Assembly (NCBI RefSeq): GCF_053078305.1
Contig: NZ_CP166879.1
Direction: 5' to 3' (one strand)
Length of the DNA stretch: 64,000 bases
Both the position numbers and the translations under genes were made by a program. This document shows positions 2,481-64,000 of the stretch, one piece after another (positions within the stretch are counted from its first letter, which is position 1; each line of letters begins with the position of its first letter). A model generated the notes under the pieces. That model worked only from the letters and a program-made list of their open reading frames with translations, had not been told where the DNA came from and did not search any database.

Positions 2481-2618
2481 TTCTCAAATGTGGAGCATTT
2501 CTTGCCGTTACGACTACAATTTTCTCAATTACTTAACGTATTGTGCCGTTTCATTTTCCATAAATTTACAATTTCATTACCATGACGGCGTTTTCCCATT
2601 CTTAACCTGGCTTTTTTC

Positions 2619-4721: not shown

Positions 4722-4730
4722 TTACCTTGA

Positions 4731-4750
4731 TGCCCGGTATTTGCCGGGCA
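4731..4750. terminator. Hairpin between convergent yncD and mcbR
   Basis: tgcccgg-tatt-tgccgggca inverted repeat followed by ttta; 10 bp after yncD stop. Confidence 0.45.
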
Positions 4751-4756
4751 TTTACT

Positions 4757-5422: not shown

Positions 5423-5619
5423 TTTAATTCCTTCGCGTGTTTTCTGTCCAACCCTGCCTGCATGGCAGAAGGAATTCACCTGGTGTATTAAAGTGAATAA
5501 TCATAAACCACTCACCTTTGTTGTTATTAGCAGCAGAACAATGATGTGGTTAGTTAATTAAAGCTGAAAATAAGCTTTTTGCCTGGATTTTTATGGCGGC
5601 TTACGCCGCCGTTGAAACT

Positions 5620-6657
5620 TTAATCATCACCCGCCACGCGGATCACCACTTTGCCGAAGTTTTTACCCTTCAGCAGGCCGATAAACGTCTGTGGCGCATT
5701 CTCTAAACCGTCAGTAATTTCTTCGCGGTAGTGGATTTTATCCTCTTTCACCCATTGCCCCATCTCCTTCTGAAACTCATGGATGCGGTGACCATAATCC
5801 TGAGCGATAATAAACCCTTGCAAGCGAATACGTTTTTTCAGCACCGTTGCCATCAACAGGGGTAAACGATCCGGACCGGGTGGTAGCTCTGTAGCGTTAT
5901 AGCTGCTCACTAAGCCACAAACGGGAATGCGCGCAGATGTATTAAGTAATGGTAGCACTGCATCAAATACCTTACCGCCCACGTTTTCATAATAGATATC
6001 AATACCTTTTGGGCACGCTTTCGCCAGTTGTTCGGCAAAATCGTCCGCGTGGTGATCAAGGCAAACATCGAAGCCTAACACCTCGGTAGCATGGCGGCAT
6101 TTTTCCGCGCCACCGGCTACCCCCACCACTCTGCAACCTTTAAGTTTGCCGATTTGCCCCACCGTCGCCCCCACTGGTCCTGTCGCCGCAGCTACCACCA
6201 ACGTTTCGCCCTCTTTAGGCTGACCGATATCCAGCAGCCCCATATAAGCGGTAAAGCCTGGCATCCCCAGCACACCCAGCGACCACGATGGATTTTGCGG
6301 ATGATCGCCAAGTTTCACCAGATCATCACCACTGGATATGTCATAGTCCTGCCATCCACTGTAGCCCAGCACCCAGTCGCCAGGCTGATAATCAGGATGA
6401 TTCGACTTCACGACACGGCTCACCGTACCGCCGACCATCACGCCGCCAATATCAACCGGCGGTGAATAAGATGGCTCATCGCTCATACGTCCACGCATAT
6501 ACGGGTCCAGGGACAAATAAACTGTGCGCAGTAACACCTGTCCTTCACCCGGTGTGGCGACATCATCTTCTTCAAGACGGAAATTCTCCGGAACCGGTGC
6601 GCCATGCGGACGCGAGGCCAGAACCCAACGTCGATTACGCTGCTTTTGTTGCCCCAT
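5620..6657 (-). CDS. curA: NADPH-dependent curcumin/dihydrocurcumin reductase (MDR-family oxidoreductase)
   Basis: ORF 5620..6750; start trimmed to MGQQKQRNRR (345 aa); nucleotide-binding motif AAATGPVGATVGQIGK. Confidence 0.88.
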   Translation of the reverse strand: MGQQKQRNRRWVLASRPHGAPVPENFRLEEDDVATPGEGQVLLRTVYLSLDPYMRGRMSDEPSYSPPVDIGGVMVGGTVSRVVKSNHPDYQPGDWVLGYSGWQDYDISSGDDLVKLGDHPQNPSWSLGVLGMPGFTAYMGLLDIGQPKEGETLVVAAATGPVGATVGQIGKLKGCRVVGVAGGAEKCRHATEVLGFDVCLDHHADDFAEQLAKACPKGIDIYYENVGGKVFDAVLPLLNTSARIPVCGLVSSYNATELPPGPDRLPLLMATVLKKRIRLQGFIIAQDYGHRIHEFQKEMGQWVKEDKIHYREEITDGLENAPQTFIGLLKGKNFGKVVIRVAGDD

Positions 6658-6837
6658 AATGCTCTCCTGTGCTTTTGGCATGAATCCATCAATAGTAGCA
6701 GGCTCACGGGATTGGTTTTGTTTGCAGCCGTCACATCCCCTCTGCAACACGCAATAATTTCATCGAGGAATCCGTTGCTTCGGGCTGTTTTCGATAGTAT
6801 TGATAACATCATCATCATTATTTTATTGAGGCCAGAC

Positions 6838-7356
6838 ATGTCCATCCGTTTTGCCCGCAAAGCCGACTGTGCTGCCATTGCGGAAATTTATAACCACGCC
6901 GTGTTGTATACGGCGGCTATCTGGAATGACCAAACGGTGGATGCAGATAACCGCATTGCCTGGTTTGAAGCGCGGACCATAGCAGGTTATCCGGTGCTGG
7001 TAAGTGAAGAAGATGGCGTAGTGACGGGATATGCCTCATTTGGCGACTGGCGTAGTTTCGATGGTTTTCGCCATACCGTGGAACATTCGGTTTATGTCCA
7101 TCCCGATCATCAGGGCAAAGGTCTGGGGCGTAAATTGTTAAGCCGATTGATTGATGAAGCGCGGGATTGCGGGAAGCATGTCATGGTCGCCGGGATCGAA
7201 TCGCAAAATCAGGCCTCGCTGCATCTGCACCAGTCGCTGGGATTTGTCGTCACCGCACAAATGCCGCAGGTGGGCACTAAATTTGGGCGCTGGCTGGATC
7301 TGACATTTATGCAGTTGCAACTCGACGAACGCACTGAACCGGACGCGATTGGATGA
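6838..7356 (+). CDS. mnaT: GNAT-family N-acyltransferase MnaT (YncA)
   Basis: In-frame ATG at 6838 (MSIRFARKADCAAIAEIYNH) within ORF 6604..7356; GNAT fold motifs; 172 aa. Confidence 0.88.
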   Translation: MSIRFARKADCAAIAEIYNHAVLYTAAIWNDQTVDADNRIAWFEARTIAGYPVLVSEEDGVVTGYASFGDWRSFDGFRHTVEHSVYVHPDHQGKGLGRKLLSRLIDEARDCGKHVMVAGIESQNQASLHLHQSLGFVVTAQMPQVGTKFGRWLDLTFMQLQLDERTEPDAIG

Positions 7357-7802
7357 ATCAGTCGCTCACCCTTGCCTTTTTGATTGCCGCCGGAATTGGT
7401 CTGGTAGTCCAGAACACGCTGATGGTTCGCATCACCCAGACCTCCTCTACCATTCTCATCGCCATGTTGCTGAACTCACTGGTGGGGATTGTGCTCTTTG
7501 TTTCTATTTTATGGTTTAAACAAGGTATGGCGGGGTTTGGCGAACTGGTGTCCAGCGTGCGCTGGTGGACACTTATACCTGGCTTGCTGGGATCGTTTTT
7601 TGTCTTCGCCAGTATCAGCGGATATCAGAATGTGGGAGCGGCGACAACTATTGCAGTACTGGTCGCCAGCCAGCTGATTGGCGGTCTGGTTCTGGATATC
7701 TTCCGCAGTCATGGCGTACCACTACGGGCGTTGTTCGGCCCAATTTGTGGCGCAATTTTACTTGTGGTTGGCGCCTGGTTGGTAGCCAGACGCTCATTTT
7801 AA
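7353..7802 (+). CDS. ydcZ: Inner-membrane protein YdcZ (DMT-like, DUF606)
   Basis: 149-aa hydrophobic ORF; start overlaps mnaT stop (ATGA). Confidence 0.85.
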   Translation: MNQSLTLAFLIAAGIGLVVQNTLMVRITQTSSTILIAMLLNSLVGIVLFVSILWFKQGMAGFGELVSSVRWWTLIPGLLGSFFVFASISGYQNVGAATTIAVLVASQLIGGLVLDIFRSHGVPLRALFGPICGAILLVVGAWLVARRSF

Positions 7803-8036
7803 TCACAGGATGGTGCCGCCTTTGGTTAACTGTTCATGGCGCGCTTCCATATCTTCTTTATGCTTGCGACCGTGATGAGCAATAGCGGTGCGCAAACGCT
7901 GCTGCTGGGTGTAGCGATCTTCCCGACTTAACTCCGCGTCATCGCTCAGGGCGATTAATAATTCGTTCATATGGGCAATGACGCTCTCTTCAATCGCGGC
8001 ATCCACACGCGCGATGACTTCATCCAGATGCGACAT
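7803..8036 (-). CDS. ydcY: Small protein YdcY (DUF2526)
   Basis: 77-aa ORF, recognised sequence MSHLDEVIARVDAAIEES. Confidence 0.8.
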   Translation of the reverse strand: MSHLDEVIARVDAAIEESVIAHMNELLIALSDDAELSREDRYTQQQRLRTAIAHHGRKHKEDMEARHEQLTKGGTIL

Positions 8037-8121
8037 ACTTTCTCCTTAGCCACTTGTGAAATTTATCGATTCATCCAAATGATATAAGTCTGCGTGGTGC
8101 CGTCAAGCCAGTGAGTAAGAT

Positions 8122-8295
8122 TTAAAACAGTGAAAACAACAGCGCCACCGGGAAACTCATCGGCCATGTTGCCCCCACCAGAAAGGCGCTTAAGAAACGG
8201 ATGCGTTTCTTATCGTGAGAAAGAAACCAAGTGATAAGAAATGCGATTGCTGCCATAACCGCATAAAAAACAAGCATGTGTTGATAGAGAGACAT
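8122..8295 (-). CDS. ortT: Small membrane toxin-like protein OrtT (YdcX)
   Basis: ORF 8122..8343 trimmed to MSLYQHMLVFYAVMAAIAFLITWFL (57 aa, two TM segments). Confidence 0.8.
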   Translation of the reverse strand: MSLYQHMLVFYAVMAAIAFLITWFLSHDKKRIRFLSAFLVGATWPMSFPVALLFSLF

Positions 8296-8489
8296 GTACG
8301 GGCGTCCAGCCAGATGAATAAAACGCGCGCAAATATGCGTCATTTTTTGACGTACATCAAGTTTTTTAACCGGTTTGAGAAAAAAACATCAAACAGCAAC
8401 TTGCCCTTATCCATCTTCAGAATGAGTATTATTGCGGATTTTCTTAACCCGTACTATACACATAGGGGCAATGATAAAAGGTGGCAAAA

Positions 8490-8585
8490 ATGAATGTTTC
8501 CAGTAGAACTGTAGTACTGATAAATGTCTTTGCTGCTGTTGGTTTGTTTACTCTTATCTCTATGAGATTTGGCTGGTTTATTTGA
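8490..8585 (+). CDS. yncL: Small single-TM protein YncL (31 aa)
   Basis: Below the 60-aa ORF-track cutoff; ATG at 8490 preceded by SD aaaggtgg; translation MNVSSRTVVLINVFAAVGLFTLISMRFGWFI; recognised as YncL. Confidence 0.75.
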   Translation: MNVSSRTVVLINVFAAVGLFTLISMRFGWFI

Positions 8586-8607
8586 TGTAGTGATTTTGCA
8601 CGCAGCA

Positions 8608-8642
8608 CGTACTGTCAGAGAAATCAGTGCTCTGACAGTACG
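8608..8642. repeat. Perfect 13-bp inverted repeat (hairpin) downstream of yncL and patD
   Basis: cgtactgtcagag-aaatcagtg-ctctgacagtacg; no adjacent T-tract on either strand. Confidence 0.6.
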
Positions 8643-8681
8643 CAAGATCATCTCATACTCTTACGATCTGCAATATTATCC

Positions 8682-10106
8682 TTAATGTTTAACCATGACG
8701 TGGCGGACGACGGTGTAATCCTCCAGCCCATAAAGTGACATATCCTTGCCGTAACCAGAAAGTTTCTGCCCACCGTGCGGCATTTCACTTACCAGCATGA
8801 AATGGGTATTGACCCAGGTACAACCATATTGCAGCCGTGCACTGACGCGATGCGCCCTGCCCACATCTTTCGTCCATACCGAAGATGCAAGTCCGTACTG
8901 GCTGTCATTCGCCCAGTTCACCACCTGTTCTTCGTTGTCGAAGAGCGTAACACTCACTACTGGACCAAATACCTCTTTTTGCACGATGGCATCGTCCTGT
9001 AATGCGCCAGCCAGCAGCGTCGGCGCATAGTAATAGCCATTACCCTTGCGCTTTTCACCGCCAGTGATCACTTTGATGTGCCCTGTCGCTTTCGCCTCTT
9101 CTACTGCCTTGCTGACGCGTTCGAGATGCGCCAGCGAGCTTAAAGGTCCAAGCTCCGTAGACTCGTCATCCGGCGCACCAGATTTTAACGTTGCCACCGC
9201 AGCACCCAGTTTTTCCACCAGCGTATCGTAAATGCCTTTTTGCGCGTAGATCCGACAAGCCGCAGTACAATCCTGTCCAGCATTGTAATAGCCAAATGTA
9301 CGTACACCTTCGACCACTGCTTCAATATCCGCATCATCAAAAACAATCACTGGCGCTTTGCCACCAAGTTCCATATGAGTACGCTTAATGGACGGCGCGG
9401 TATGGCTGATGATGTGCTCGCCGGTGGCGATAGAGCCCGTCAGCGACACCATCCGCACTTTAGGATGTCCGGTCAGCGGATCGCCCACGGTTTTGCCTCT
9501 GCCAAACAGTACGTTAATCACGCCTGCCGGGAAGATATCTTTCGCCAGCTCTGCCAACTTCAACGCGGTCAGCGGGGTAATTTCTGATGGTTTAAGCACT
9601 ACGCAGTTCCCTGCCGCCAGCGCCGGAGCCAGTTTCCACGCTGCCATCATCAGCGGATAATTCCACGGTGCGATAGAAGCCACGACCCCCAACGGATCGC
9701 GACGGATCATCGAAGTATGACCTTCAAGATATTCACCTGCCGCCAGACCATTCAGACAGCGCGCCGCACCCGCGAAAAAGCGAAAAACATCGACAATCGC
9801 CGGGATTTCATCATTGAACGCACTATGCAGCGGTTTGCCACAATTACGGGACTCCAGTTCGGCAAAAACCTGACCATTTTCTTCGATAACATCAGCCAGT
9901 TTCAGCAGACATTCCGCACGCACTTTCGGCGTGGTTTGCCCCCATTCGGCAAATGCTGCATCTGCCGCGCGCACAGCAGCATCGACCTGCTCTGCGGATG
10001 CCTCGGCAATCTCCAGTAAAACGTCCCCCGTTGCCGGATTATAGACAGGCTGTTTTTCCCCTTCGCCGCTAACCAGTTCTCCGTTAATCAGTAACTTATG
10101 TTGCAT
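8682..10106 (-). CDS. patD: Gamma-aminobutyraldehyde dehydrogenase (aldehyde dehydrogenase family)
   Basis: 474-aa ORF; ALDH motifs MELGGKAP and catalytic-Cys region GQDCTAACR. Confidence 0.92.
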
Positions 10107-10127
10107 AGCATATTCCTGTATCAGTGG

Positions 10128-10922
10128 TTATTGACCATTGTCGCCTTCGCGGGTTAGCCACCAGGCCCCCAGGATCGGCAAGGTTGTTACCAACATAACC
10201 AGCAGTGCCACCACGTTAGTTACCGGTACATCACGCGGTCGCCCAAGCTGATTGAGCAACCACAACGGTAACGTTCGTTCATGACCTGCCGTAAAGGTCG
10301 TAACGATGATTTCATCGAACGACAAGGCAAACGCCAGCATTCCTCCTGCCAGTAACGCCGAACTGAGATTCGGCAACACTACGTAGCGGAAGGTTTGCCA
10401 GCCATTGGCCCCAAGATCCATTGACGCCTCAACCAGACTCCACGAGGTGCGGCGAAAACGGGCGATGACATTGTTAAACACCACCACTACGCAAAAAGTC
10501 GCATGGCCGACCACGATGGTGAAAAATCCCGGCTCCAGATTGATGGTTTTAAAAGCGGTTAATAGCGCCAGACCAGTGACAATGCCCGGCAGCGCAATGG
10601 GCAGCAGCAGTAACAGCGAAATGGCGTTTTTGCCGAAAAAGTCTCGTCGCCACAGCGCGGCAGCTGCAAGCGTCCCTAACACCAGCGCGATTAATGTCGC
10701 CAGCGCCGCCACTTTAAGTGACAGTGTCACGGCATCAAGAATATCACTACGCTGTGCTGCCACGCTAAACCAGCGCAGCGTCAGGCCTTGCGGTGGAAAA
10801 CTAAACGCCGCATCTTCAGTGTTAAACGCATAGGCGGCGATAATCAGGATAGGAAAATGTAGGAAAACTACGCCGCCCCAGGCCGCCAGTTTGAGGAAAA
10901 ACGGTGCGCGTTCAGAGTGCAT
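10128..10922 (-). CDS. ydcV: ABC transporter permease
   Basis: 264-aa polytopic ORF with ABC permease-type sequence; overlaps ydcU stop. Confidence 0.88.
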
Positions 10923-11853
10923 CGAACGCTCCCAGACGTTTCACGAACGCCAGGTACAGTGCGATGAGAACAATCGGCACCAGGGTGAATGCCGCCGCCA
11001 TCGGCATATTGCCAATCGCCCCCTGCTGGGAATAAACCATATTGCCGATAAAATATCCTGGAGGGCCAACCAGTTGCGGGACGATAAAATCACCCAGTGT
11101 GAGTGAGAAGGTAAAGATAGAGCCAGCGGCAATACCCGGGATCGCCAGCGGCAGCACCACATAGCGAAAGGTTTGTCGTGGACGTGCGCCGAGATCAGCT
11201 GACGCCTGCAACAATGACGGCGGCAAACGCTCAAGCGCCGCCTGCACGGGCAGGATCATGAACGGCAGCCAGATATAGAGAAACACCAGAAAGCGCCCCA
11301 GCCCGGAAGTTGACAGCGTATTGCCGCCCACCGCAGGTAATGTAAGGAACGCAGTCAGCAGTGGTTCCAGCCCCAGATGTTGTAAAAACCACTGAGCCAC
11401 GCCATCTTTTGCCAGCAATAACGTCCAGGCATAGGCTTTAACAATGTAGCTCGCCCACATCGGCAACATTACCGCGATATAAAAAAACGCTTTCATTTTT
11501 CCGCTGGTATAGCGCGCCATATACCACGCCATTGGAAAAGCCAGAATGGCGCTGGCGATAGTGACTGCCACAGCCATAGTCAGCGTGCGGAGAATGATGT
11601 CGTAATTTGCCGGATTAAACAGCGCACGGATGTTCGCCAGCGTCAGTTCCGGCGTTACCGACATGGTGAAATCGTCAAAGGTATAAAAGCCCTGCCATAA
11701 CAGCGTTAGCAGCGAGCCGAAATAGACAATGCCAAACCACATTAGCGGGCCAAGCAGCAGCAAAAACAGCCCCAGCCCCGGATTCCGCCAGAAGAAACCG
11801 GACACCTTACCCAGACCTGGACGTGAAGGTGATTGCAATACGTTCATCGCCAT
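10912..11853 (-). CDS. ydcU: ABC transporter permease
   Basis: 313-aa polytopic ORF; adjacent to ydcT. Confidence 0.88.
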
Positions 11854-50592: not shown

Positions 50593-51453
50593 TTATTCTC
50601 GCGAAATACCATCCAACGTAGACAACACTTCCTCAGAAAGATGCAATTTTTCAGCAGCCATATTCTCCCGTAAATGCGCAACAGAAGACGTCCCTGGGAT
50701 CAGCAAAATATTCGGTGAACGTTGTAACAGCCACGCCAGCGCCACCTGCATTGGTGTTGCACCCAGGCTCGCAGCAACATCGGAAAGCGTGGAAGATTGC
50801 AGCGGCGTAAAGCCCCCGAGCGGAAAGAACGGCACGTAGGCAATGCCGTCACGAGCCAAAGCTTCAATCATTGCGTCATCAGCACGATGAGCAATGTTGT
50901 ATTCGTTCTGCACACAGACGATTTCGGCAATCTTGCGCGCCTCTGCAACCTGCGTCGGTGTGACGTTGCTCAGGCCAATATGTTTTACCAGGCCTTGTTG
51001 TTGCATCTCTGCCAGCACGGTCAGGCTGGCTTCAATCGATCCTTCCGCCGGGCCATGACCATCCCCCATCATCACGCGCAGGTTAACCACATCCAGTATG
51101 TCCAGGCCGAGATTACGTAGATTATCGTGTACCGCTTTTTGCAGCTCTGCCGGAGAAAATGCGGGCAACCAGGATGCGTCCTCTCCACGCCGCGCACCAA
51201 TTTTAGTGACAATTGTCAGATCGTCAGAGTAAGGATAAAGCGCTTCGCGGATAATCTGATTGGTGACGTGCGGACCATAAAAGTCGCTGGTATCAATGTG
51301 ATTGACGCCCAATGCCAGCGCCTCACGCAGCACGGTTATAGCGACGTGGCGATCTCTTGGGGGGCCAAAAACCCCAGGACCTGCCAGTTGCATCGCGCCA
51401 TAACCAAGACGGTTAACGGATTTTGTACCGAGAGTAAATGTATTGCTGCTCAT
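50593..51453 (-). CDS. pdxI: Aldo-keto reductase (pyridoxine 4-dehydrogenase PdxI / YdbC)
   Basis: 286-aa ORF with AKR-family sequence (GYGAMQLAG..., IDTSDFYG). Confidence 0.88.
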   Translation of the reverse strand: MSSNTFTLGTKSVNRLGYGAMQLAGPGVFGPPRDRHVAITVLREALALGVNHIDTSDFYGPHVTNQIIREALYPYSDDLTIVTKIGARRGEDASWLPAFSPAELQKAVHDNLRNLGLDILDVVNLRVMMGDGHGPAEGSIEASLTVLAEMQQQGLVKHIGLSNVTPTQVAEARKIAEIVCVQNEYNIAHRADDAMIEALARDGIAYVPFFPLGGFTPLQSSTLSDVAASLGATPMQVALAWLLQRSPNILLIPGTSSVAHLRENMAAEKLHLSEEVLSTLDGISRE

Positions 51454-51619
51454 CGCACCCTGCCCTGTAATAAAACGGATTAAGAAAAATCAGTATAGAA
51501 ACGAAAAGAGATAAATAATGCGAAGGCGTAAACAAGATTTCTGGATGAGTAGCACTATTGTCCTGAAAGACACCAAAACATTAGACAGCAAAAGATAAGT
51601 CAAGCGTCGCATCCGGCAA

Positions 51620-51650
51620 TAAAAAACCGCAACCTGTATCAGCGTTGCGG
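51620..51650 (-). terminator. Intrinsic terminator of ydbA
   Basis: Minus strand: ccgcaac-gctgatacag-gttgcgg hairpin followed by ttttttatt; about 20 bp after ydbA stop; a REP-like half-site gcgtcgcatccggca lies adjacent. Confidence 0.6.
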
Positions 51651-51672
51651 TTTGTGTATCACATGCTAAAAA

Positions 51673-54600
51673 TTAGAACGTTTTCTTAAAGTTCAGCATC
51701 ACGCCTTTGTCGCTGATGCCGTCCTCTTTCCAGTGATACGCATCCAGATTCAGCGAACTTTCTTTGCTACTGTACTTCACGCCGACGCTCGCCAGGCTGT
51801 TGATACCGCCGCCCTTCTGACCGTCATCGACGTTAAAGTGCTGGCTGCCTGCCCCTGCAAGGCTTGCCGTGCGCTGGCTCTTGCTGTAGCTCAGGTTCGG
51901 CCCGCCTTCCAGCGTCGCATTCGCGCTCCAGCCGCCTTTCCCTGCGTAGTCCAGTTTCAGCCCGACGATGCTGTCCACCGCCGTTTCGCTGCCGCTGTTC
52001 ATGCTCAGGTTAAAGTCTCCGGCATTGCGCTCCTGATAGCCGCCTTCCAGCGTGTGACGCAGTTTCACTCCGGCGTACGGGGTGATTTTCAGCCCTTCGC
52101 GCGGTTCAAAGGTTTTTGCCCCTTCGCTGCGGAACTCCAGGTACTGCTGTTTCACATCCGTGTCTGCCGTTTTGCTGACGTCGCCGTAAGCCACCGAGCG
52201 GCTGCTGTCGAGGTTATGCACGTCATAGCGCAGGGCGTTGTTCCAGTTCATCCCGTTGTCGAAGAACATCTGGTGCTTCAGGCCGAAGAACTGGCTGTAA
52301 CCACCGGTTACGCCGTTGTCGCCCGCTTTCTGCGCACCGTCGCCATCCAGACGGGCGATACCGTACTCCAGACTCAGGCTCTGGCTTTCGCTCAGGTCAA
52401 CGGTTTTACGCAACGCCAGCATGTCGTACTCGGTGTTATTTCCGAGTTCAGCACGCGGGTCGCCTTTCGCCACCACGTTAAACGCCAGACCGTTGCCCAT
52501 CTTCGGCGCGGCGTCCGCCAGCATGCTGAAGCGGTTGCTCAGCACGCGCGCCTCGCGGAATACCGTGGTTGCCTGGCTGCCGCTCACCTGCTTCAGGGCG
52601 CTGTTCAGTTCGGCAGTAGTGCCGACGTTCAGGCTGGTATACAGCTCGTTGTTGGTGTAACCCGCATCCAGTGCCTTCGCCACATCGTTCACCGAAGCAT
52701 CGGTCGCCACATCGGTGTAGGCGTTTTTGCTCATGGTGACGTCAACGTTGCCGCTGGCATCGGTGCTGCCTTTGGCGGTCCACACCACAGACGTTGAGGT
52801 GATGGCATCGGCGTCGGTCAGGTTGCTGCCTTCCACCACGTTGTCGAAACTGACCGTGGTGTCTGCCGTACCGGCGGCGAAACCGGTGTTGATCCCGACA
52901 CCGTTCATGCTGGCGTTGTTGACCTTGAGCTTACCGGCGCTGCCGTCAACGTTGGTACCGACCACATAACCGTTGAGGTTGTTGCTACCGCTGCCAGTCG
53001 CATCTCCCCCTGTTGTTACGCCACCAGAACTGGTGTTCGGCACTTCCGGCAACGTGTAGTCGGTGTAATGCACTTCGGTATTATTACCGTTGTTGCCGTT
53101 CACCCCTTCCACGTTCACGCTGTCGCCCTGCTTAATCAACCCGGAACCGGTCACGCCATCGGCAATCACCACGGTACCGTTGTTAACGATATGGCCTTGT
53201 GTTCCCAACACACTGAATGCAAAGGAATCGTTAGCATAGATATTAATCGTGCCGTTGTTCTCGATCACCGCGTCTGCGGTAGCGTTGGCATCCAGTTGCA
53301 TACCAATTAACCCGGTATCGGTGGTACCTTCGGTGCCGAGATTGATAACGCCGTTGTTAACCAGTTGTGCGTTTTTATCACCTTCCATCGCCACGGCATT
53401 GTTGCCGCTGATGTTCATCACGCCATCGTTGAGGGCAACATAGTTGTTGTGGGTGAATTTAACTGCGCTGGCGTTGTCTTTATCGAAGTTAATCACCCCG
53501 CCATCCTGGTTCCACAGGAAGGCATCGCTTTCTGTCGCACCAGCGGTACTTACCGCCACAGTGACTTTCGCATCCACCACGCCCTTGTTAATAAACTGGC
53601 TGGCGCCGTCGTCATAGTGAATAGCGCCCGCGCCAAGTGCGGCATCCAGCGTCATTTCACCGGTGTTATATAACGTGGCGTTAGCATTGCTTCCCTGGAA
53701 GCGAATGGCGTTTTTACTGTTATCAAGGATGAGCTTGCCGCTGTTGTTGAACGTTGATTGGTCGTCAATATCCAGCGTCCCGGCATTGTTATTTTCATCC
53801 TGATAACCCATTTTCCAGGTCCCCGCGTTATTCACCACCGCAGAGTTATAGAGAATGGCACCTTTACGCGCCTCGCCGCCTGCAAGGTTATTGAATACCG
53901 CATCGCCCTGAGCGTTAACGCGCGCCGACGCAATACCGCTGTTATTCACCGTACCATCGTGAAGTTGTAAAGTTGACAGGGAACCGGTGTTATTAATTAC
54001 CGCGTTGCTGTTTTTCTCAATTTTTACGACGTCATTAAGCGTTCCGTTGTTATTGAAGGTTCCTCCTTCCAGAGTCACCGTGTTCAATACACCTTCATTG
54101 GTTAACGCACCGCCTTCATTCACGACGATGGCTGAGCTAATGGTTCCGCTCGACTCGTTAACCAGCGCACCATTTTCGAGTATCCTGATCGTTCCATTTT
54201 TAACAGCACCCGCACTGGTGACATCCCCGTTGATAATCGCACCTGACGATAATAATACGGTCTCACCCGCAGAACTTAATACATCGCCATCATCATATAA
54301 ATCGGCAATATAATTATCCGTTGGATTATATTCATCGGCCCCCTGGCAAACGCCAAAGGTACAAATTGTGCCATAGTTGATAATAAGCCCAGTGCCATCG
54401 TTATAGAATGCCTGACCATTTTCCGCGTTAATGTTGATTACGCCTGTCTGGTCATTAATGGCGGTGCCTTCGTGATAAACCGCCATGCCGACGAGTTTAT
54501 TCACACCGAGAGAATCGTTGTAATTTTCATTTTTCTCCAGGTTGATGGTTCCCTGGTTAATGACCGTGTTGGTATTACCATACGCCGCCATCCCCGCACC

Positions 54601-57528
54601 CGCGTTGTAGACGGTAATCACACCATTCTCGTGGTTGGTAGACGTCGCTTTGGTTAATGCTCCATAGTAAGCATCGGTTCCCGAAGCCATTCCCACACCG
54701 AAATCTTTCGCCGTGCTATTTGCGATGTTATTACGCAGCGATGTTTCATCATTTTCATCGACCCACAGCGTATCCAGGGTGATTTGCCCTTCGTTATCCG
54801 CGGTTGATTTATCGATAGCCAACATCCCCACGCTGCCACGACCATACATCTCAATAATGCCCGTTTCGCCGTTCAGAATGGATGACGAGTAGCTGGCAAG
54901 CATACCTGTCAAACCTAATGCTCTGTTATTGAAAGAGGTACCGTCAGACAAGTTCCACTCTGCCGGATAATTCAGCACGCTGTGCTGATTCATCATTTTG
55001 GTGGTCAAGGTGCCATTGTTAACGCCAATCCCCCCGTATTCAACATCGAAGACTTTTGGTGCCGGGTCGGTACCAAAATCGTACATCGCCAGGCCAATGG
55101 ATCCGTTATTGATGACCGTTGAATCTTTATTCCAGGCAGCCGCAAAACCGATATTTTTCAGTTCAACTTCACCGTTATTGGTCGCCTTCGCACCAGAATC
55201 AATACTAATGGTGGATAACGCTACACGATAATAATAAGTGAAAGAATCCACATCACTCATATCAAACGTTGCGTCAGCGCCAATCTCCAGCTCCGCGCCA
55301 TGGCTCAACTGAATGAGATTTTCGAACCCCAGCGGGAACTCGCCGCTGATGGTTGACTCACCATTCAGGTAGACCGAGGAATGCCCATCAACGTTAATAA
55401 GCGGTGTGTCTCCGATACCACGACGAGATGCGGCAGGTTTTGAGCCATCATCCATGACATTTTTTTCACCGACAAAATGAACACCGCCATTAAGCGTAAA
55501 GGTATTGTCATCGCCAGCAATAACAATACCCGCAATGTGTTCCTGAGCACCGTCGTAACTCGCATAGGAACGCGACGTGGTTTCACTATCAGCAACAACG
55601 GTTAACTGACCATCCAGCGTGACGTCGTTGTTGTCACCGCTGATATTTACCCCGGTTGAGGGATTAAAGAAGTAAGGCTGCGCATTATCGGCTTTCTGAT
55701 CTTTATCAACCAGAATACTGCCCGCTATTTCGATAGTATTACCATCACCCGAAACATTAACACCTGTCGCTTCTTGCCCTGTCACATTCAGCCCATAAGT
55801 CGACAGCGTCATGTTGTTATTATCGCCAGAGACATCAAGACCGGTGGAGAAATCCCCAACGTCTAACCCGCCCGCAAGTGAAATATTGGCTTTATCCCCT
55901 GCAACGCTGACACCGGTTCCGGCGTTGGTCGCGGTAATATCACCGACGTTAACAAATGTCGCATTATTACCGTCGATCTGAATGCCGATTGCATTTTCAC
56001 CTGTAGCGGCCTGGCCAACATTGAGGTCGCCCATGTTGATCACGCTGACGCCATCACCATCAAGCAGCATGCCAATAGAGTTATCTTCGATGACCGTAAT
56101 ATTACCTTTGTTGCTAACGAACGTATCATTGCCGTCAACGTCAATACCGTGCGCACCACCGCTTACGTATAAGTCGCCTTCCTGTTTGATGGTGGCACCG
56201 TCACCGACAATTTTCGAGCCAGTGGAATTCTCACCGTCAACGCTCATGGTACCTTGATTATCGACCCGCGCATTATCGCCATTGATAAGGCTACCCGTAC
56301 CACCATTGGTGATGGTCGAGTCGCCCGCAGTGTTCAGCGTAGCATTATCGCCATTGATGATTACTGCGGTACCGCCGTCAACTTCCGTCTCGCCGTTGTT
56401 ATTGATAGTGATATCGTCACCAGTAAGGATACCAACGACCGAACCCTCGCCGATGGCGGTCGTTTTACCGTCGTTGTTGAGGGTGATGTTGTCACCCTCA
56501 ACCGTCATGACAGTACCGCCATTCAGCGCCGTATTGCCGCCCTGATCGGTGATGATCGCATTACCAAAATCAATCGCAGTTCCGGTTGTGCCATCAACAA
56601 CGACACCGGCCTCTTTAGTGATATGGATGAGCCCATCATCGTCGTAGCTCCAGGTGATGCCACCTGCCGTATTTACGCCATCAAAGATGACGGTGTTGCT
56701 GTCGTCATGGACTGTCCAGCCCTTGACTATCGTCGTCAGGCCATCAGGCGCGGTTAAGGTGTAACTCCCATCGGCATTTTGGCTGTAGGTAAAGGTGGTT
56801 TCGCGAATTTTGACGGTTTTCGCGTCCTGATCCCAGGTTACGTCATTTTTATAGACGACAGGATCGTGTTTAACCGGGGTATCGCCACCATCGTCTGGCG
56901 GAACAGGCGTATCACCGCCGTCGTCTGGAACTGGCGTATCACCGCCATCATCTGGTGGAACCGGCGTATCACCGCCGTCATCTGGTGGAACCGGCGTATC
57001 ACCGCCGTCATCTGGCGGAACTGGCGTATCACCGCCGTCATCTGGCGGAACTGGCGTATCACCGCCGTCATCTGGCGGAACCGGCGTATCATCGCCGTCA
57101 TCTGGCGGAACTGGCGTATCACCGCCGTCATCTGGCGGAACTGGCGTATCACCGCCGTCATCTGGCGGAACCGGCGTATCACCGCCGTCGTCTGGCGGAA
57201 CAGGCGTATCACCGCCATCATCCGGAACTGGGGAGTTATTATGGTGGTGATTGTCATCGTCACTTAAGGTATATATAGCAATTCCCGTAGCTACTGCAGC
57301 AAGACCTGCAGCTGCCCATGGTAAAACTGCACTATCTTTATTTTCTCTGCACTCCGCGGATAAATTTTCTAGCTGCTCTTTGCTCAGGGAATGAATATTT
57401 GCCGGACATGTTATCTTACTGGACTTACGTGTTTTTTCGGTTGAGTCGGGTATTGAAGTATCCGCAGCCCATGTCTGGCTACTTAACGCCATGGCAACAC
57501 AAACAGACAATAATTTTTTCCTTTGCAT
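51673..57528 (-). CDS. ydbA: Giant AIDA-like autotransporter (type Va) YdbA, intact
   Basis: ORF 51673..57567; start set at ATG 57528 (MQRKKLLSVCVAMALSSQTWA signal peptide, SD aagga 8 nt upstream); Pro/Asp-rich repeats, long Gly/Asn/Thr-rich passenger, C-terminal beta-barrel ending ...LNFKKTF. Confidence 0.88.
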   Translation of the reverse strand: MQRKKLLSVCVAMALSSQTWAADTSIPDSTEKTRKSSKITCPANIHSLSKEQLENLSAECRENKDSAVLPWAAAGLAAVATGIAIYTLSDDDNHHHNNSPVPDDGGDTPVPPDDGGDTPVPPDDGGDTPVPPDDGGDTPVPPDDGDDTPVPPDDGGDTPVPPDDGGDTPVPPDDGGDTPVPPDDGGDTPVPPDDGGDTPVPDDGGDTPVPPDDGGDTPVKHDPVVYKNDVTWDQDAKTVKIRETTFTYSQNADGSYTLTAPDGLTTIVKGWTVHDDSNTVIFDGVNTAGGITWSYDDDGLIHITKEAGVVVDGTTGTAIDFGNAIITDQGGNTALNGGTVMTVEGDNITLNNDGKTTAIGEGSVVGILTGDDITINNNGETEVDGGTAVIINGDNATLNTAGDSTITNGGTGSLINGDNARVDNQGTMSVDGENSTGSKIVGDGATIKQEGDLYVSGGAHGIDVDGNDTFVSNKGNITVIEDNSIGMLLDGDGVSVINMGDLNVGQAATGENAIGIQIDGNNATFVNVGDITATNAGTGVSVAGDKANISLAGGLDVGDFSTGLDVSGDNNNMTLSTYGLNVTGQEATGVNVSGDGNTIEIAGSILVDKDQKADNAQPYFFNPSTGVNISGDNNDVTLDGQLTVVADSETTSRSYASYDGAQEHIAGIVIAGDDNTFTLNGGVHFVGEKNVMDDGSKPAASRRGIGDTPLINVDGHSSVYLNGESTISGEFPLGFENLIQLSHGAELEIGADATFDMSDVDSFTYYYRVALSTISIDSGAKATNNGEVELKNIGFAAAWNKDSTVINNGSIGLAMYDFGTDPAPKVFDVEYGGIGVNNGTLTTKMMNQHSVLNYPAEWNLSDGTSFNNRALGLTGMLASYSSSILNGETGIIEMYGRGSVGMLAIDKSTADNEGQITLDTLWVDENDETSLRNNIANSTAKDFGVGMASGTDAYYGALTKATSTNHENGVITVYNAGAGMAAYGNTNTVINQGTINLEKNENYNDSLGVNKLVGMAVYHEGTAINDQTGVININAENGQAFYNDGTGLIINYGTICTFGVCQGADEYNPTDNYIADLYDDGDVLSSAGETVLLSSGAIINGDVTSAGAVKNGTIRILENGALVNESSGTISSAIVVNEGGALTNEGVLNTVTLEGGTFNNNGTLNDVVKIEKNSNAVINNTGSLSTLQLHDGTVNNSGIASARVNAQGDAVFNNLAGGEARKGAILYNSAVVNNAGTWKMGYQDENNNAGTLDIDDQSTFNNSGKLILDNSKNAIRFQGSNANATLYNTGEMTLDAALGAGAIHYDDGASQFINKGVVDAKVTVAVSTAGATESDAFLWNQDGGVINFDKDNASAVKFTHNNYVALNDGVMNISGNNAVAMEGDKNAQLVNNGVINLGTEGTTDTGLIGMQLDANATADAVIENNGTINIYANDSFAFSVLGTQGHIVNNGTVVIADGVTGSGLIKQGDSVNVEGVNGNNGNNTEVHYTDYTLPEVPNTSSGGVTTGGDATGSGSNNLNGYVVGTNVDGSAGKLKVNNASMNGVGINTGFAAGTADTTVSFDNVVEGSNLTDADAITSTSVVWTAKGSTDASGNVDVTMSKNAYTDVATDASVNDVAKALDAGYTNNELYTSLNVGTTAELNSALKQVSGSQATTVFREARVLSNRFSMLADAAPKMGNGLAFNVVAKGDPRAELGNNTEYDMLALRKTVDLSESQSLSLEYGIARLDGDGAQKAGDNGVTGGYSQFFGLKHQMFFDNGMNWNNALRYDVHNLDSSRSVAYGDVSKTADTDVKQQYLEFRSEGAKTFEPREGLKITPYAGVKLRHTLEGGYQERNAGDFNLSMNSGSETAVDSIVGLKLDYAGKGGWSANATLEGGPNLSYSKSQRTASLAGAGSQHFNVDDGQKGGGINSLASVGVKYSSKESSLNLDAYHWKEDGISDKGVMLNFKKTF
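56877..57228. repeat. 27-bp coding tandem repeat, about 12 copies, encoding P(P)DDGGDTPV
   Basis: Near-identical 27-nt units (ccgccgtcatctggcggaaccggcgtatcac and variants) visible directly; one 24-nt unit and one G-to-D variant; generates artefactual ORFs on the opposite strand and other frames. Confidence 0.9.
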
Positions 57529-57935
57529 ATAAAATTCCTTAGATCTAGACCGTGCGTAACAAGCCATGCAGAATTTGAAGATAAATCGTAGTAAATATTC
57601 ATAGTGAAATAAGCAATAAAGAAATGCTTATATAATTCACAAAATCAATATTAAAATCAGGCAAGTAAAAGCATACAAAAAAACAGTTGATGGAATTATA
57701 TTCCACAAAAAACTCACTTCAATCTAAAAATTAACGACAAAAAACAAAAACACACTAATAATTCATTGACGCTGCATATATATTTTGTGATTACATATAT
57801 ATTGGTAATGATTTGTTATTTAAGGGAAGGATATATAAGGTTTTTGTAGAAATACCCACGGTAATTAAGCATGCTAACGTCAGTTTAAATACTGTAAAAG
57901 ATCATTAATAGATACATTTTGTAGCCAACTATAAT

Positions 57936-58262
57936 TTATTTGCGCAACCATTTACCATTAATTCCCTGAACATATTGCCCCGACTTCGCGCGAGCAACAA
58001 GCTTTTGTCCAGCCAGTTTGGCTATCTCTTTAGTGGATACATTATTTTGCTTTGCCAGTTGTTGGTAACTATGGTTACGAGCTTCATTAATATCTTTTAC
58101 TAATGCCTGTGTTTCGGCATCCGTTTGTAGCGCCACCAGGTAACCGTTAAGCGTTTCACCTACCCGCCCCTGACTTCTGGCTTCGTTCAGGGTTAAAGCC
58201 ATTGCACTGTCGCTCATCAGGCCAATGGCCCATACAGCTATGAGTAATGTTCTTTTCATCAT
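57936..58262 (-). CDS. ydbL: Periplasmic DUF1318 protein YdbL
   Basis: ORF 57936..58340 trimmed to MMKRTLLIAVWAIGLMSDSAMA (signal peptide); 108 aa. Confidence 0.82.
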   Translation of the reverse strand: MMKRTLLIAVWAIGLMSDSAMALTLNEARSQGRVGETLNGYLVALQTDAETQALVKDINEARNHSYQQLAKQNNVSTKEIAKLAGQKLVARAKSGQYVQGINGKWLRK

Positions 58263-58266
58263 CACC

Positions 58267-58452
58267 TCAAAATAGATCGCTACGGGTTTTGAGCAGGTCT
58301 TCAACGTCCTTATCCGCTTTAATGATGATTTCATGCTCAATTTTAACGTTCATATTAATGGTGATTGGCTCTTTCGGCGCAGCTACTTCAATGCGAGGCG
58401 TGCAACCAACCAACATAAAAGAGGACGCAAACGCGGCTATCACTATTTTCAT
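58267..58452 (-). CDS. ynbE: Lipoprotein YnbE
   Basis: 61-aa ORF; lipobox MLVGC; start overlaps ydbH stop (ATGA). Confidence 0.85.
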   Translation of the reverse strand: MKIVIAAFASSFMLVGCTPRIEVAAPKEPITINMNVKIEHEIIIKADKDVEDLLKTRSDLF

Positions 58453-61088
58453 TGTTTTTCCTCACACTCTTTTCCTGATGGGCAGCCAGTTTCCGGTAGC
58501 TGGGCATTCTGCTCCAACCATGCCTGGAGATTATCGCCAAAGCGTAAACTGCGCCACAGCGTAAAAATATTCTCTTCATGATGGTAATTAAGGTTTACCG
58601 TACCGCTTTTACCATCAACGCGACTGGTACCTGTAATGTTGGCCTGCATGGTTAATAAACCGAGATTATCTAAATTAATATTTGTCGATGAACGGCTAAT
58701 TTCCATATAGCGCAACCAGTTAATTGCTGAACCCGCAGTCATATTGTCTTTCACCACCGCATCTGCGGTGTCTTTATCCAGCCGCAAGGTCATTGGCCCG
58801 CTATTTGCCAGCCAACCATCTTTCACTATCCATTTTTCATTGTTCAGCCATAGTGGCAAGGCCCCACTGAATGCCCCGGACATGGCAAATTGTTTCGGAT
58901 TGACGGCGCTAACCAGTTCGCTGGATGAGAGATTATTCAGCCGCAACAGCGCCGGGTCATGTTGCGGCATACGTAATTGTTTCATCAGCACGTTACCGCC
59001 TAACACATCGACGCTAACATCAGTCAACAGCAATGGTTCTTCTTCAGTCCACGGATAACGCCCTTGCAAATCAGCCGTAATATTTTTCGCTGTCACCAGA
59101 TTAATCACTTCGGCAATTCGCAACGTAACGGGGCCGCGAGTCCCCAGATGCCAGGCTCCATCGGCAAAACGGAAAGGCAGGACAAAATCGACACCGTTAA
59201 CCTGATTATCTGACATCCAGGCACTACCGCCTTTCAACACGCCGTGTCCTCCCGCGCGGAATCCTTGTTCAGGCGCAGCAGAAAATGCAACCTGAGCATA
59301 CAGTTCACCATCGCGTAAGTTCATCTTCCAGTCGGGTGGCACCAGCGGCTGGAATACAGTCAGTGATTGTTTAGGCCACCAGGCGTTACCGCGCAGACGA
59401 ATACCGTCCCAGCGACCATTTACCCGAACCGGGCCAATCTCACCAGCATGTAAATCGCCTTTAAAGAGGAAATACGTCGGATCGCGCCCATCGACGCTAA
59501 ATTTTAAGGTTGATGGCGGTAACACACTGCCGCCAGTGAACAGCGTTTGCCCGGCGTCCAGTGACAGCGCGCCGCTGAAGGAGGGATGCTGTGCGTCACG
59601 TACCCAGACGACGGGCTTGTCGAGAATTAATCGCGGCTTTTCTACCGTCATCGTACCGTATTGTAACTGGTCGAAACCGGTGGAGAGATCGGTCAGCGTA
59701 ATCGTGCTGTCATGCCACTCACCTTTTCCTGCGACATCCCAGGTGGCATTCATCGGTGTAAAACTCCCTTTTCCCCAGTAGCGCCACTGCCAGCGGCCAG
59801 CGTCAGGGAGAAAATCATTCGCCAGCCCATCCATATGCAGCACGAAATCGCCCAGTTCATTTTCATGCGCCTGCAAAATGGCCTGCAAACGTCCGTCAAC
59901 ACCACGTTGGGTGACTTTTACACCCGCTAAAGGCCAGCGGATTTCATCGATGTCCAGCGAATCGATGACTCTTCCCTTTGAACGAAGTAACGCGCCTGGC
60001 TCAAAGGTCAGCGTTGGGTCAGACAGACTTCCACTTACCTGCGCAGGTAAACGGGCATATAAAATGAGGTCCGCCTGTTTCGCTTCACCGGTCAGCTGCA
60101 GAGGCAGCTGGCTGTTATCCATGCTTAATTTTCCTGGGCCAAAATTAAGCACCGCGTTGCCTTTACCCGCTTGCCCCTGGGTCAGCACACTAAGTCGTCC
60201 GCTGATCAGAGCGTTCTCAAGCCCTGCCTGCCAGTTGTCGACTTTGACACCCAGTCGGCCACTCAAAGGAAAACCTGCATACGGCCAGCTCCAGCGACCA
60301 TCGCTTACGGTCAATTGTTGACGCGTAATTTGCCACGGCAAATCGAGCAACGGATCGCCGTTATCCCGTGCCAGCACAATCAATTGCCCGCTATTCTCCT
60401 GCCAGTCCAGCTCGGCATCTACCAGTGACGGTTCCTGCGGCAAGTTTAACGTCGCAGTAGCATGACCACTTACAGGAAGTCCATCCGGCACGAGCGGCAT
60501 AGTAAATTCCCCCACCAGTTTAACCGGCGGCTGATTTTCAAACGCGACGACATCCAGTTCGCTGACTGTAAGTTGTTGCCCTTTCAGCTGGCCTTGAAAT
60601 TTAACTTTTTCGCCCTGATAACGCAGTTGCTGGATATCGGAGGTTAATGCGAGAGAGAGTTTTCCCTGCCATTCCTGCCAGGGAGAAAAAATCAGTTTAT
60701 CGATATTGATCCAGGTGTTAGGCAGCATGGACTGCCATTGCGCGAGGGTTTTTGGAGCAGCTGGCGATTGCTCCGTCTGCGGCAATTTCGCCAGACAAGC
60801 AGAATCAAGTTCTACCGTGCCGACGTTCAATAACCAGCGGCTCGGATGTGAAAGGCTGGCGTTGGTGATATGCGCAAGCTGACAATCTCCCACCAGATAA
60901 CGGAGATCGGGAATGATTAAACCTTTACGCGTAATGCGTGGGCTTTCATCTAATGCAATACGTGTCCCGAGCGGTAGCCAGATGCCCGCCAGCGTGGGAA
61001 CCCACAGCCCGAGCGTCATCAGCAGCGTCAACGGCACAAGAATAATCAGTAATAACAGCGCGAGAACGGCTTTATATTTACCCAGCAT
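58449..61088 (-). CDS. ydbH: AsmA-like protein YdbH (TamB/YhdP paralog)
   Basis: 879-aa ORF with N-terminal TM anchor MLGKYKAVLALLLLIILVPLTLLM. Confidence 0.9.
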   Translation of the reverse strand: MLGKYKAVLALLLLIILVPLTLLMTLGLWVPTLAGIWLPLGTRIALDESPRITRKGLIIPDLRYLVGDCQLAHITNASLSHPSRWLLNVGTVELDSACLAKLPQTEQSPAAPKTLAQWQSMLPNTWINIDKLIFSPWQEWQGKLSLALTSDIQQLRYQGEKVKFQGQLKGQQLTVSELDVVAFENQPPVKLVGEFTMPLVPDGLPVSGHATATLNLPQEPSLVDAELDWQENSGQLIVLARDNGDPLLDLPWQITRQQLTVSDGRWSWPYAGFPLSGRLGVKVDNWQAGLENALISGRLSVLTQGQAGKGNAVLNFGPGKLSMDNSQLPLQLTGEAKQADLILYARLPAQVSGSLSDPTLTFEPGALLRSKGRVIDSLDIDEIRWPLAGVKVTQRGVDGRLQAILQAHENELGDFVLHMDGLANDFLPDAGRWQWRYWGKGSFTPMNATWDVAGKGEWHDSTITLTDLSTGFDQLQYGTMTVEKPRLILDKPVVWVRDAQHPSFSGALSLDAGQTLFTGGSVLPPSTLKFSVDGRDPTYFLFKGDLHAGEIGPVRVNGRWDGIRLRGNAWWPKQSLTVFQPLVPPDWKMNLRDGELYAQVAFSAAPEQGFRAGGHGVLKGGSAWMSDNQVNGVDFVLPFRFADGAWHLGTRGPVTLRIAEVINLVTAKNITADLQGRYPWTEEEPLLLTDVSVDVLGGNVLMKQLRMPQHDPALLRLNNLSSSELVSAVNPKQFAMSGAFSGALPLWLNNEKWIVKDGWLANSGPMTLRLDKDTADAVVKDNMTAGSAINWLRYMEISRSSTNINLDNLGLLTMQANITGTSRVDGKSGTVNLNYHHEENIFTLWRSLRFGDNLQAWLEQNAQLPETGCPSGKECEEKQ

Positions 61089-61295: not shown

Positions 61296-62285
61296 ATGAA
61301 ACTCGCCGTTTATAGCACAAAACAGTACGACAAGAAGTACCTGCAACAGGTGAACGAGTCCTTTGGCTTTGAGCTGGAATTTTTTGACTTTCTGCTGACG
61401 GAAAAAACCGCTAAAACTGCCAATGGCTGCGAAGCGGTATGTATTTTCGTAAACGATGACGGCAGCCGCCCGGTGCTGGAAGAGCTGAAAAAGCACGGCG
61501 TTAAATATATCGCCCTGCGCTGTGCCGGTTTCAATAACGTCGACCTTGACGCGGCAAAAGAACTGGGGCTGAAAGTAGTCCGTGTTCCAGCCTATGATCC
61601 AGAGGCCGTTGCTGAACACGCCATCGGTATGATGATGACGCTGAACCGCCGTATTCACCGCGCGTATCAGCGTACCCGTGACGCTAACTTCTCTCTGGAA
61701 GGTCTGACCGGCTTTACTATGTATGGCAAAACGGCAGGCGTTATCGGTACCGGTAAAATCGGTGTGGCGATGCTGCGCATTCTGAAAGGTTTTGGTATGC
61801 GTCTGCTGGCGTTCGATCCGTATCCAAGTGCAGCGGCGCTGGAACTCGGTGTGGAGTATGTCGATCTGCCAACCCTGTTCTCTGAATCAGACGTTATCTC
61901 TCTGCACTGCCCGCTGACACCGGAAAACTACCATCTGTTGAACGAAGCCGCCTTCGATCAGATGAAAAATGGCGTGATGATCGTCAATACCAGTCGCGGT
62001 GCATTGATTGATTCTCAGGCAGCAATTGAAGCGCTGAAAAATCAGAAAATTGGTTCGTTGGGTATGGACGTGTATGAGAACGAACGCGATCTGTTCTTTG
62101 AAGATAAATCCAACGACGTAATTCAGGATGACGTATTCCGTCGCCTGTCTGCCTGCCACAACGTGCTGTTTACCGGGCACCAGGCATTCCTGACAGCAGA
62201 AGCTCTGACCAGTATTTCTCAGACTACGCTGCAAAACTTAAGCAATCTGGAAAAAGGCGAAACCTGCCCGAACGAACTGGTTTAA
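61296..62285 (+). CDS. ldhA: Fermentative D-lactate dehydrogenase (NAD-dependent)
   Basis: 329-aa ORF; NAD-binding GVIGTGKIGVA; D-2-hydroxyacid dehydrogenase family. Confidence 0.95.
   Translation: MKLAVYSTKQYDKKYLQQVNESFGFELEFFDFLLTEKTAKTANGCEAVCIFVNDDGSRPVLEELKKHGVKYIALRCAGFNNVDLDAAKELGLKVVRVPAYDPEAVAEHAIGMMMTLNRRIHRAYQRTRDANFSLEGLTGFTMYGKTAGVIGTGKIGVAMLRILKGFGMRLLAFDPYPSAAALELGVEYVDLPTLFSESDVISLHCPLTPENYHLLNEAAFDQMKNGVMIVNTSRGALIDSQAAIEALKNQKIGSLGMDVYENERDLFFEDKSNDVIQDDVFRRLSACHNVLFTGHQAFLTAEALTSISQTTLQNLSNLEKGETCPNELV

Positions 62286-63345: not shown

Positions 63346-64000
<655 letters not shown>

Follow-up and report, generated by a model that had tools for sequence, protein, structure and literature searches.

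How does ydbL come to lie next to an autotransporter gene in a genome where, by comparison with Escherichia coli K-12, a large catabolic cluster should separate the two? In K-12 MG1655, ydbL and ydbA are 19,185 bp apart, and the 19.2 kb between them holds feaR-feaB-tynA-paaZ..paaY. The complete order is ydbH-ynbE-ydbL-feaR-feaB-tynA-paaZ-paaABCDEFGHIJK-paaXY-(ynbG)-ydbA-pdxI, and the MG1655 annotation places neither an integrase nor a tRNA at either end of this island. In the 64,000-nucleotide stretch analyzed here (the window; contig NZ_CP166879.1 of assembly GCF_053078305.1), only a short AT-rich spacer lies between ydbL and an autotransporter gene at the ydbA position. An earlier note on this DNA, which gave the K-12 gene order correctly, read this junction as an empty site of the island and the spacer as the island boundary. 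We find that the junction represents one allele of a gene-content polymorphism that is already known, and that this allele is a whole haplotype rather than a deletion junction.

The ydbL-autotransporter junction

The features of the locus are listed below by window coordinates, strand, and content. E1V33 is a non-coli Escherichia that is compared with the window in the next section.

51450..52000, no strand: approximate left edge of the divergent block, taking in the sequence between pdxI and the autotransporter gene and the 3' end of the latter
51673..57528, minus strand: intact BigA/YdbA-family autotransporter gene, 1951 aa, a divergent allele of K-12 ydbA
56872..57222, minus strand: 30-bp tandem repeat (11.8 copies) in the autotransporter gene, encoding a proline-rich decapeptide array
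57529..57935, no strand: AT-rich spacer (27% G+C) from ydbL to the autotransporter gene, 407 bp long with the more likely start codon
57695..57722, minus strand: candidate promoter, the best sigma-70-like match (TTGAAG-16-TATAAT), located ~170 nt before the start codon of the autotransporter gene
57936..58259, minus strand: ydbL, divergent allele, 73% aa and ~78% nt identical to K-12, with its stop codon at 57936
58267..58452, minus strand: ynbE, divergent allele in the same tract, 90% aa identical to K-12
58449..61088, minus strand: ydbH, E. coli-type (98–99% identical to K-12) apart from ~20 codons at its 3' end and a small patch
58507..58521, no strand: right-hand crossover interval inside ydbH, ~19–23 codons before the stop
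58853..58887, no strand: residual E1V33-type patch inside the otherwise E. coli-type ydbH

Beyond these, ldhA occupies 61296–62285 on the plus strand, and pdxI and ydbD lie to the left of the autotransporter open reading frame (ORF).

The gap of 368 bp between ydbL and the next ORF (57568–57935), as first reported, was borne out by both the ORF listing and the sequence, but it is measured to the longest ORF (51673..57567, minus strand, 1964 aa). The true intergenic spacer is more likely the 407 bp at 57529–57935, because three observations converge on a start at 57528. The RefSeq start in strain A16, which has an identical junction, corresponds to this position; the ATG here has a ribosome-binding site, TAAGGAA, in front of it, and a typical signal peptide, MQRKKLLSVCVAMALSSQTWA, comes next; and the same ATG is conserved in a remnant of the gene in Escherichia whittamii. 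The description of the spacer as AT-rich was likewise accurate, given a G+C content of 49.7% across the window. Searches of the whole window with all 18 island proteins (tblastn, E ≤ 10) and with island DNA (blastn, word size 7) recovered no fea/paa remnants, with nothing in or near the spacer, and the sole matches to island proteins were the paralogous aldehyde dehydrogenases patD and aldA at 32–38% aa identity. The fea/paa cluster is thus absent from the ydbL-ydbA locus, and the spacer is free of remnant ORFs, both as the earlier note had held.

Judged by its sequence, the spacer is probably the 3' end of ydbL together with the promoter and leader of the autotransporter gene. The region upstream of K-12 ydbA is also very AT-rich (25% G+C), and although the two have no sequence in common, this shared composition fits an equivalent upstream-regulatory role. 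The candidate promoter is a lead only, since a promoter and terminator scan of the spacer region returned as many promoter-like sites as shuffled sequence did. No Rfam family matched between 57300 and 58300 (E ≤ 1), and a search for direct and inverted repeats in or beside the spacer (57400–58050) returned only short AT-rich matches at chance level.

The gene beyond the spacer is a member of the BigA/YdbA autotransporter family. Its 3' end is 92% nt identical to K-12 ydbA, and identity falls to 81–86% at 52000–52900 and to 76–80% at 53000–53400; beyond 53525, in the N-terminal two thirds, the two genes could not be aligned. At the protein level, the A16 copy, which is 98% aa identical to that of the window, shares 71% aa identity with K-12 YdbA across 1177 aa at the C terminus and 42% across a segment of 477 aa in the N-terminal part. 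Pfam domains BigA_N, BigA_3rd, BigA_4th, and BigA_beta are recorded for the 1951-aa homologues in two other genomes (L056 and L063, the latter GCA_025442155.1), and the L063 gene is 99.9% nt identical to that of the window over the two gene stretches compared. The NCBIfam model auto_BigA scored 1099 bits, under its curated cut-off of 3400, which places the protein outside the equivalog of Salmonella BigA. NCBIfam models gave no match for YdbL or YnbE.

Among genomes carrying the same junction, the length of the autotransporter ranges from 1901 to 1961 aa, and carriers are 91–99.9% identical to one another in this gene vs. at least 99.3% in the flanks. The window copy is intact, whereas EDL933 (O157:H7) has the gene broken into two ORFs. 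At ~52000–52500, A16 (L002), L060, and L062 have a K-12-type patch where the window is of the divergent type. In L058 (10325–14074), which also has the window-type ydbL, an IS1 lies immediately past the spacer, giving the order ydbL - IS1 - ynbD, and the autotransporter gene, pdxI, ydbD, and ynbA-C are missing. We also note that in the RefSeq records of strains ZH063 (L051, 5078–9077) and UPEC132 (L052, 4375–8374), the ~8-kb autotransporter gene at the ydbA position is named “EntS/YbdA MFS transporter,” evidently a mix-up of the names ydbA and ybdA in annotation.

A divergent block shared with another Escherichia

From position 64000 down to ~58534, the window was 97–100% identical to K-12 per 100 bp, except for a dip to 91–93% at 58734–58933. 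By contrast, identity was 72–86% per 100 bp through the tip of ydbH, ynbE, and ydbL, with the ynbE-ydbL segment ~78–79% nt identical to K-12. We compared the window with K-12 and E1V33 at the informative sites that distinguish these two; the last site of K-12 type was 58522, and the first of E1V33 type was 58506. To the right of this switch, K-12-type sites dominate, broken by the patch at 58853–58887 and a few isolated sites; past it, there are more than 100 E1V33-type sites, the exceptions being two K-12-type sites and one unassigned. The left limit is a gradient rather than a sharp edge. Differences from K-12 amount to 2–6% per 200 bp in pdxI, which is mostly 95–100% identical to K-12 per 100 bp, and then rise to 8% at 51600–51900 and to at least 15% from 52000.

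The divergent block therefore runs from the pdxI side at ~51,500–52,000 to the switch in ydbH at 58522/58506, with the spacer inside it. This outcome changes how the junction should be read. The spacer does not mark the island boundary, as divergence from K-12 starts inside ydbH, and the term “empty site” does not fit a spacer that is unlike both K-12 junctions and is flanked by different alleles of the neighboring genes. Hence, of the earlier interpretation, the absence of the island and the K-12 gene order stand, but the empty site and the spacer as boundary do not. Because divergence begins in ydbH and runs on through the autotransporter gene, the difference from K-12 is a block replacement, with no insertion or excision at 57568–57935: a ~28-kb block has been replaced by a ~7-kb block of another haplotype.

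To place this haplotype among relatives, we scanned species-representative genomes with a YdbL alignment, which yielded 47 loci, none of them from E. fergusonii, Salmonella, E. marmotae, or E. ruysiae. Among the 47, one non-coli genome, Escherichia sp. E1V33 (L004), had a near-identical tract, and its YdbL is 100% aa identical to that of the window. Through ldhA and ydbH, the window is 77–98% (mostly 82–93%) identical to E1V33; identity rises to 99–100% from ~58500 to ~57100, an interval that takes in ynbE and ydbL as well as the spacer and ~400 bp at the 5' end of the autotransporter gene. The E1V33 contig stops at ~57100, ~770 bp beyond ydbL, and near-identity covers the tract to that point only. 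Overall, identity to E1V33 is 99.5% in the tract vs. 88.5% in the flanking core, and the identity profiles of the window against K-12 and against E1V33 are mirror images. E1V33 and E. whittamii are 89% identical to each other in the tract and 88% identical in ydbH.

The island is missing next to ydbL in E. albertii, E. whittamii, and E1V33. In E. whittamii (L005, 10325–11011), ydbL is followed by a diverged spacer, the start of the autotransporter gene with its signal peptide (first ~100 nt), and then pdxI, and spacer positions 112–407 (counted from ydbL) align with this region. The E. whittamii remnant indicates that an island-free ydbL-spacer-autotransporter order is old outside E. coli. In E. 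albertii (L007, 5298–5470), pdxI comes almost directly after ydbL, so that this species, like E. whittamii, has neither the island nor the autotransporter. Against what lies downstream of ydbL in E. albertii and in MOD1-EC7003, a divergent Escherichia sp., the spacer scored no higher than shuffles. Outside Escherichia, ydbL, feaR, and feaB stand side by side in Citrobacter, Pseudocitrobacter, Pluralibacter, and Cedecea, some of which continue with tynA and then paaZ/paaA; Raoultella has about 4 kb between ydbL and feaR.

The K-12-type ynbE-ydbL is found in phylogroup B2 strains and in MOD1-EC7003, at 94–96% identity to K-12 (96% for B2 and 96% for MOD1-EC7003). Its presence in both, with divergence that tracks phylogeny, indicates that this allele is old in E. 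coli. The K-12-type ynbE-ydbL (L001, 5641–6202) is just 80% identical to E. whittamii and E. albertii, compared to 86% and 83%, respectively, for the adjacent ydbH body, and the majority E. coli ynbE-ydbL allele is thus an outlier within the genus. A genome labelled E. coli SCPM-O-B-8794 (L006; NZ_JAATUR010000011.1, 2465–11337) has a ydbH only ~88% identical to that of E. coli and a third ydbL allele, 88% aa identical to that of the window and 75% to that of K-12. Its flanks are 84–91% identical to K-12 and its island 94–97%, and the change is sharp and falls between ydbL and feaR. Because this island is closer to K-12 than its flanks are, the locus swaps alleles between Escherichia lineages in both directions.

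Within E. coli, we searched 5426 complete genomes with a 993-bp junction query made up of the 5' end of the autotransporter gene, the spacer, and ydbL. The window-type junction was matched at ≥95% identity in 373 of them, and 325 of these 373 hold at least 80% of the query in one place. In the remaining genomes listed, just the ydbL/ynbE/ydbH end of the query matches, at ~81%. The N-terminal part of the autotransporter, the spacer, and ydbL are thus completely linked. At least 80% of the 19-kb fea/paa interval is present in 3097 of the same 5426 genomes. A chimeric query of the spacer and paaK, the one paa gene used, showed the two together in none of these complete genomes. Strain 510016 (NZ_CP025851.1; L065 and L066) was the sole genome with two places for this query, and the two record ends examined are without the spacer. 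Its paaK-to-pdxI region stands at the start of the record, and the ydbA-to-pdxI part is repeated near 4.855 Mb. The double place therefore reflects a duplicated paa-to-pdxI region in a poor assembly; many genes are frameshifted in this assembly, which looks like an artefact that inflates place counts in searches.

The junction query was 99.1% identical over 993 bp to O157:H7 EDL933 and to other O157:H7 genomes, and the window is of the O157:H7-type fea/paa-negative haplotype, with no cluster between ydbL and the autotransporter gene and with the same junction. The E. coli carriers of the haplotype are O157:H7, O55:H7, and relatives. Ten further carrier loci, found by exact look-up of the YdbL protein, were compared beside EDL933. 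EDL933 and 7 of these 10 loci are E1V33-type at 23–26 of 27 informative sites at 58600–58799, and patchily so up to ~58905. By contrast, the window and L063 have a short tract that ends at ~58506, with the leftover patch at 58853–58887, and L061 is intermediate. This patch is a remnant of a longer original tract, and such ragged, patched ends fit foreign DNA that is being eroded by resident alleles. The flanking core shows close relationship among the carriers: on the right, 12 carriers are 99.3–99.9% identical to the window, compared to 99.0% for K-12, and on the left 99.4–100%, compared to 97.4%.

How the haplotype reached this locus

We consider it probable that an island-free haplotype of a non-coli Escherichia replaced the resident segment by homologous recombination. 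Two observations bear directly on introgression: ancestry switches abruptly inside conserved sequence (58522–58506), and the tract is 99.5% identical to a lineage, E1V33, whose flanks are 88.5% identical. Under this scenario, a ~6.8-kb block (~51,700–58,506) would be native to non-coli (“cryptic”) Escherichia lineages in which the autotransporter gene directly follows ydbL and the fea/paa cluster is lacking. Besides the AT-rich spacer, the block would have brought in ynbE, ydbL, the final ~20 codons of ydbH, and the BigA/YdbA-type autotransporter gene. Homologous recombination would have carried it into the ancestor of an E. coli clade (O157:H7, O55:H7, and relatives) by way of two conserved flanks, namely ydbH and the autotransporter 3' end/pdxI. 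The resident ~28-kb segment would have been replaced, and feaR-feaB-tynA-paaZ..paaY lost with it, in a single event. Further exchange with ordinary E. coli DNA would later have trimmed and patched the tract, in our window cutting its ydbH end back to 58,506. The spacer would be the native ydbL-autotransporter region of the imported haplotype, most likely serving as promoter and leader. In this account, the absence of the island, the breakpoint, the near-identity to E1V33, the variable tract ends, and the linkage of the parts are all observed, while the direction of transfer, the loss of the island in a single step, and the role of the spacer are inferred.

The direction could be the reverse, with the island-free haplotype native to the E. 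coli clade as an old polymorphism and recently exported to the E1V33 lineage. Identity of 99.5% between the window and E1V33 shows that exchange took place but not which way it went, E1V33 itself could be the recipient, and identities of 90% to E. whittamii and 87% to E. albertii are also compatible with a window-type allele native to E. coli. Still, we think this direction unlikely. The K-12 type is common to B2 and MOD1-EC7003 and diverges along the phylogeny, whereas only 373 genomes have the window type, and flanks are closely related among the 12 carriers compared. Moreover, it is within E. coli that the E1V33-type tract has ragged and differently eroded ends, and E. whittamii has the same ydbL-spacer-autotransporter architecture.

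The remaining alternatives place the event at the spacer itself. If the site were truly empty, this lineage would never have had the island, and K-12-type strains would have gained a 19-kb fea/paa insert in the spacer. The lack of remnant ORFs in the window and the equally island-less state of E. albertii, E. whittamii, and E1V33 beside ydbL are in line with this, and the contrast in SCPM-O-B-8794 between island (94–97% to K-12) and flanks (84–91%) implies that the island can move as a unit. However, an insertion leaves its flanks alike, and here ydbL, ynbE, the ydbH tip, and the autotransporter gene are 15–50% divergent, with 98–99% identity just outside. Neither K-12 junction resembles the spacer above shuffles, as local alignment scores were 10 (ydbL-feaR) and 19 (paaY-ydbA) vs. 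shuffled means of 10.8 and 16.6, and we found no notable direct repeats of the kind expected at a target site. The ydbL-feaR-feaB order in Citrobacter, Pseudocitrobacter, Pluralibacter, and Cedecea further indicates that the cluster is old at this position and not a recent insertion in the K-12 lineage. Taken together, these results make a truly empty site very improbable. Considered separately as the empty attachment site of a mobile island, the locus was rejected, for it shows neither joined flanks, nor the same flank allele, nor repeats, a tRNA, or an integrase.

Deletion in place followed by local sequence divergence can be regarded as effectively refuted, even though independent deletions at this locus do exist in ZH063, HCM-24C-3, and UPEC132. 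The scars in these strains keep K-12-like sequence at 83–98% identity, and the window has none; nor did the spacer match the B2-type scars of other island-less E. coli above shuffles. Divergence of 20% that is limited to 7 kb, with a 15-bp breakpoint and 98–99% identity on both sides, is not attainable by mutation, and a deletion would not leave a tract 99.5% identical to another species.

Import of a non-coli haplotype thus remains our preferred reading. A more far-reaching one is conceivable. The ydbH-pdxI interval could be a hotspot, and homologous replacement between Escherichia species the only route by which the 17 genes of the catabolic cluster come and go there. In that case, it is most E. 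coli that would have an imported haplotype (K-12-type ynbE-ydbL with fea/paa), and the window type would be near the genus-ancestral arrangement. Hints in this direction are the lower identity of K-12-type ynbE-ydbL (80%) than of ydbH (86% and 83%) to E. whittamii and E. albertii, the switch beside the island in SCPM-O-B-8794, and the island-less loci of E. albertii, E. whittamii, and E1V33. We regard this broader proposal as possible but doubtful.

Comparison with known variation and replacement systems

The absence of the cluster from O157:H7 and phylogroup E is already known. We take the O157:H7 fea/paa-negative state to correspond to the “K-island” of the comparison between K-12 and EDL933 (Perna et al. 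2001). In published strain collections, tynA was PCR-negative in 28 of 28 O157:H7 isolates (PMC4640556), and one study of a strain panel reported that its B2 and E genomes were missing the paa determinant (PMC5422975). Another paper describes a “region of heterogeneity” here, lying between ydbH-ynbE-ydbL and core genes beyond ydbA (PMC4951805). A further source, PMC13001218, makes no mention of the phylogroup-level distribution of paa. Our literature search, whose scope did not extend to the original O157:H7 genome paper, returned nothing relevant on introgression at this locus. The published work cited here on O157:H7 and phylogroup E concerns presence and absence; by contrast, we find that ynbE-ydbL and ydbA were also replaced, by a divergent haplotype shared with non-coli Escherichia.

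By published accounts, strains with this haplotype are without the genes for growth on 2-phenylethylamine and phenylacetate. What our analysis adds is the route of the loss, which was most likely the import of a shorter foreign allele and neither a deletion nor a failed acquisition. The same import would have given its recipients another version of the YdbL/YnbE pair and of the surface autotransporter. The distinction is relevant to anyone using the junction as a marker and to efforts to infer paa gain and loss on the E. coli tree. It also bears on work on YdbH, YnbE, and YdbL, which form or regulate an intermembrane lipid-transport bridge (PMC11126948, PMC8593681), in that natural E. coli variants of YdbL can be just 73% identical to the K-12 protein.

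Other island-less E. coli differ from the window in how they reached this state. ZH063 has a deletion scar with feaR' and paaY' fragments, 88.7% identical to K-12; UPEC132 has a 374-bp junction with K-12-like flank DNA; and HCM-24C-3 retains feaR'-paaX'-paaY, has also lost ydbA, and continues with pdxI as the next gene. Like the window, all three have no functional fea/paa cluster after ydbL at the same locus. Unlike the window, they have kept the K-12-type ydbL (ynbE-ydbL 96–99% nt identical). These three are therefore deletions, whereas the window type is a replacement.

A closer parallel is the switching of the O-antigen (rfb) locus between gnd and galF in E. coli, for which homologous recombination in flanking core genes is the accepted mechanism. 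The window resembles such replacements in its sharp identity switches in conserved flanks, its foreign block, and a change of content without mobile-element machinery. It differs in that the imported allele is shorter and removes a 17-gene catabolic cluster, and in that the apparent source is another Escherichia species. We therefore see the introgression origin of the haplotype as an ordinary refinement of a known absence, involving a standard kind of event. It is a tidy case of interspecies recombination altering metabolic gene content rather than a new kind of system.
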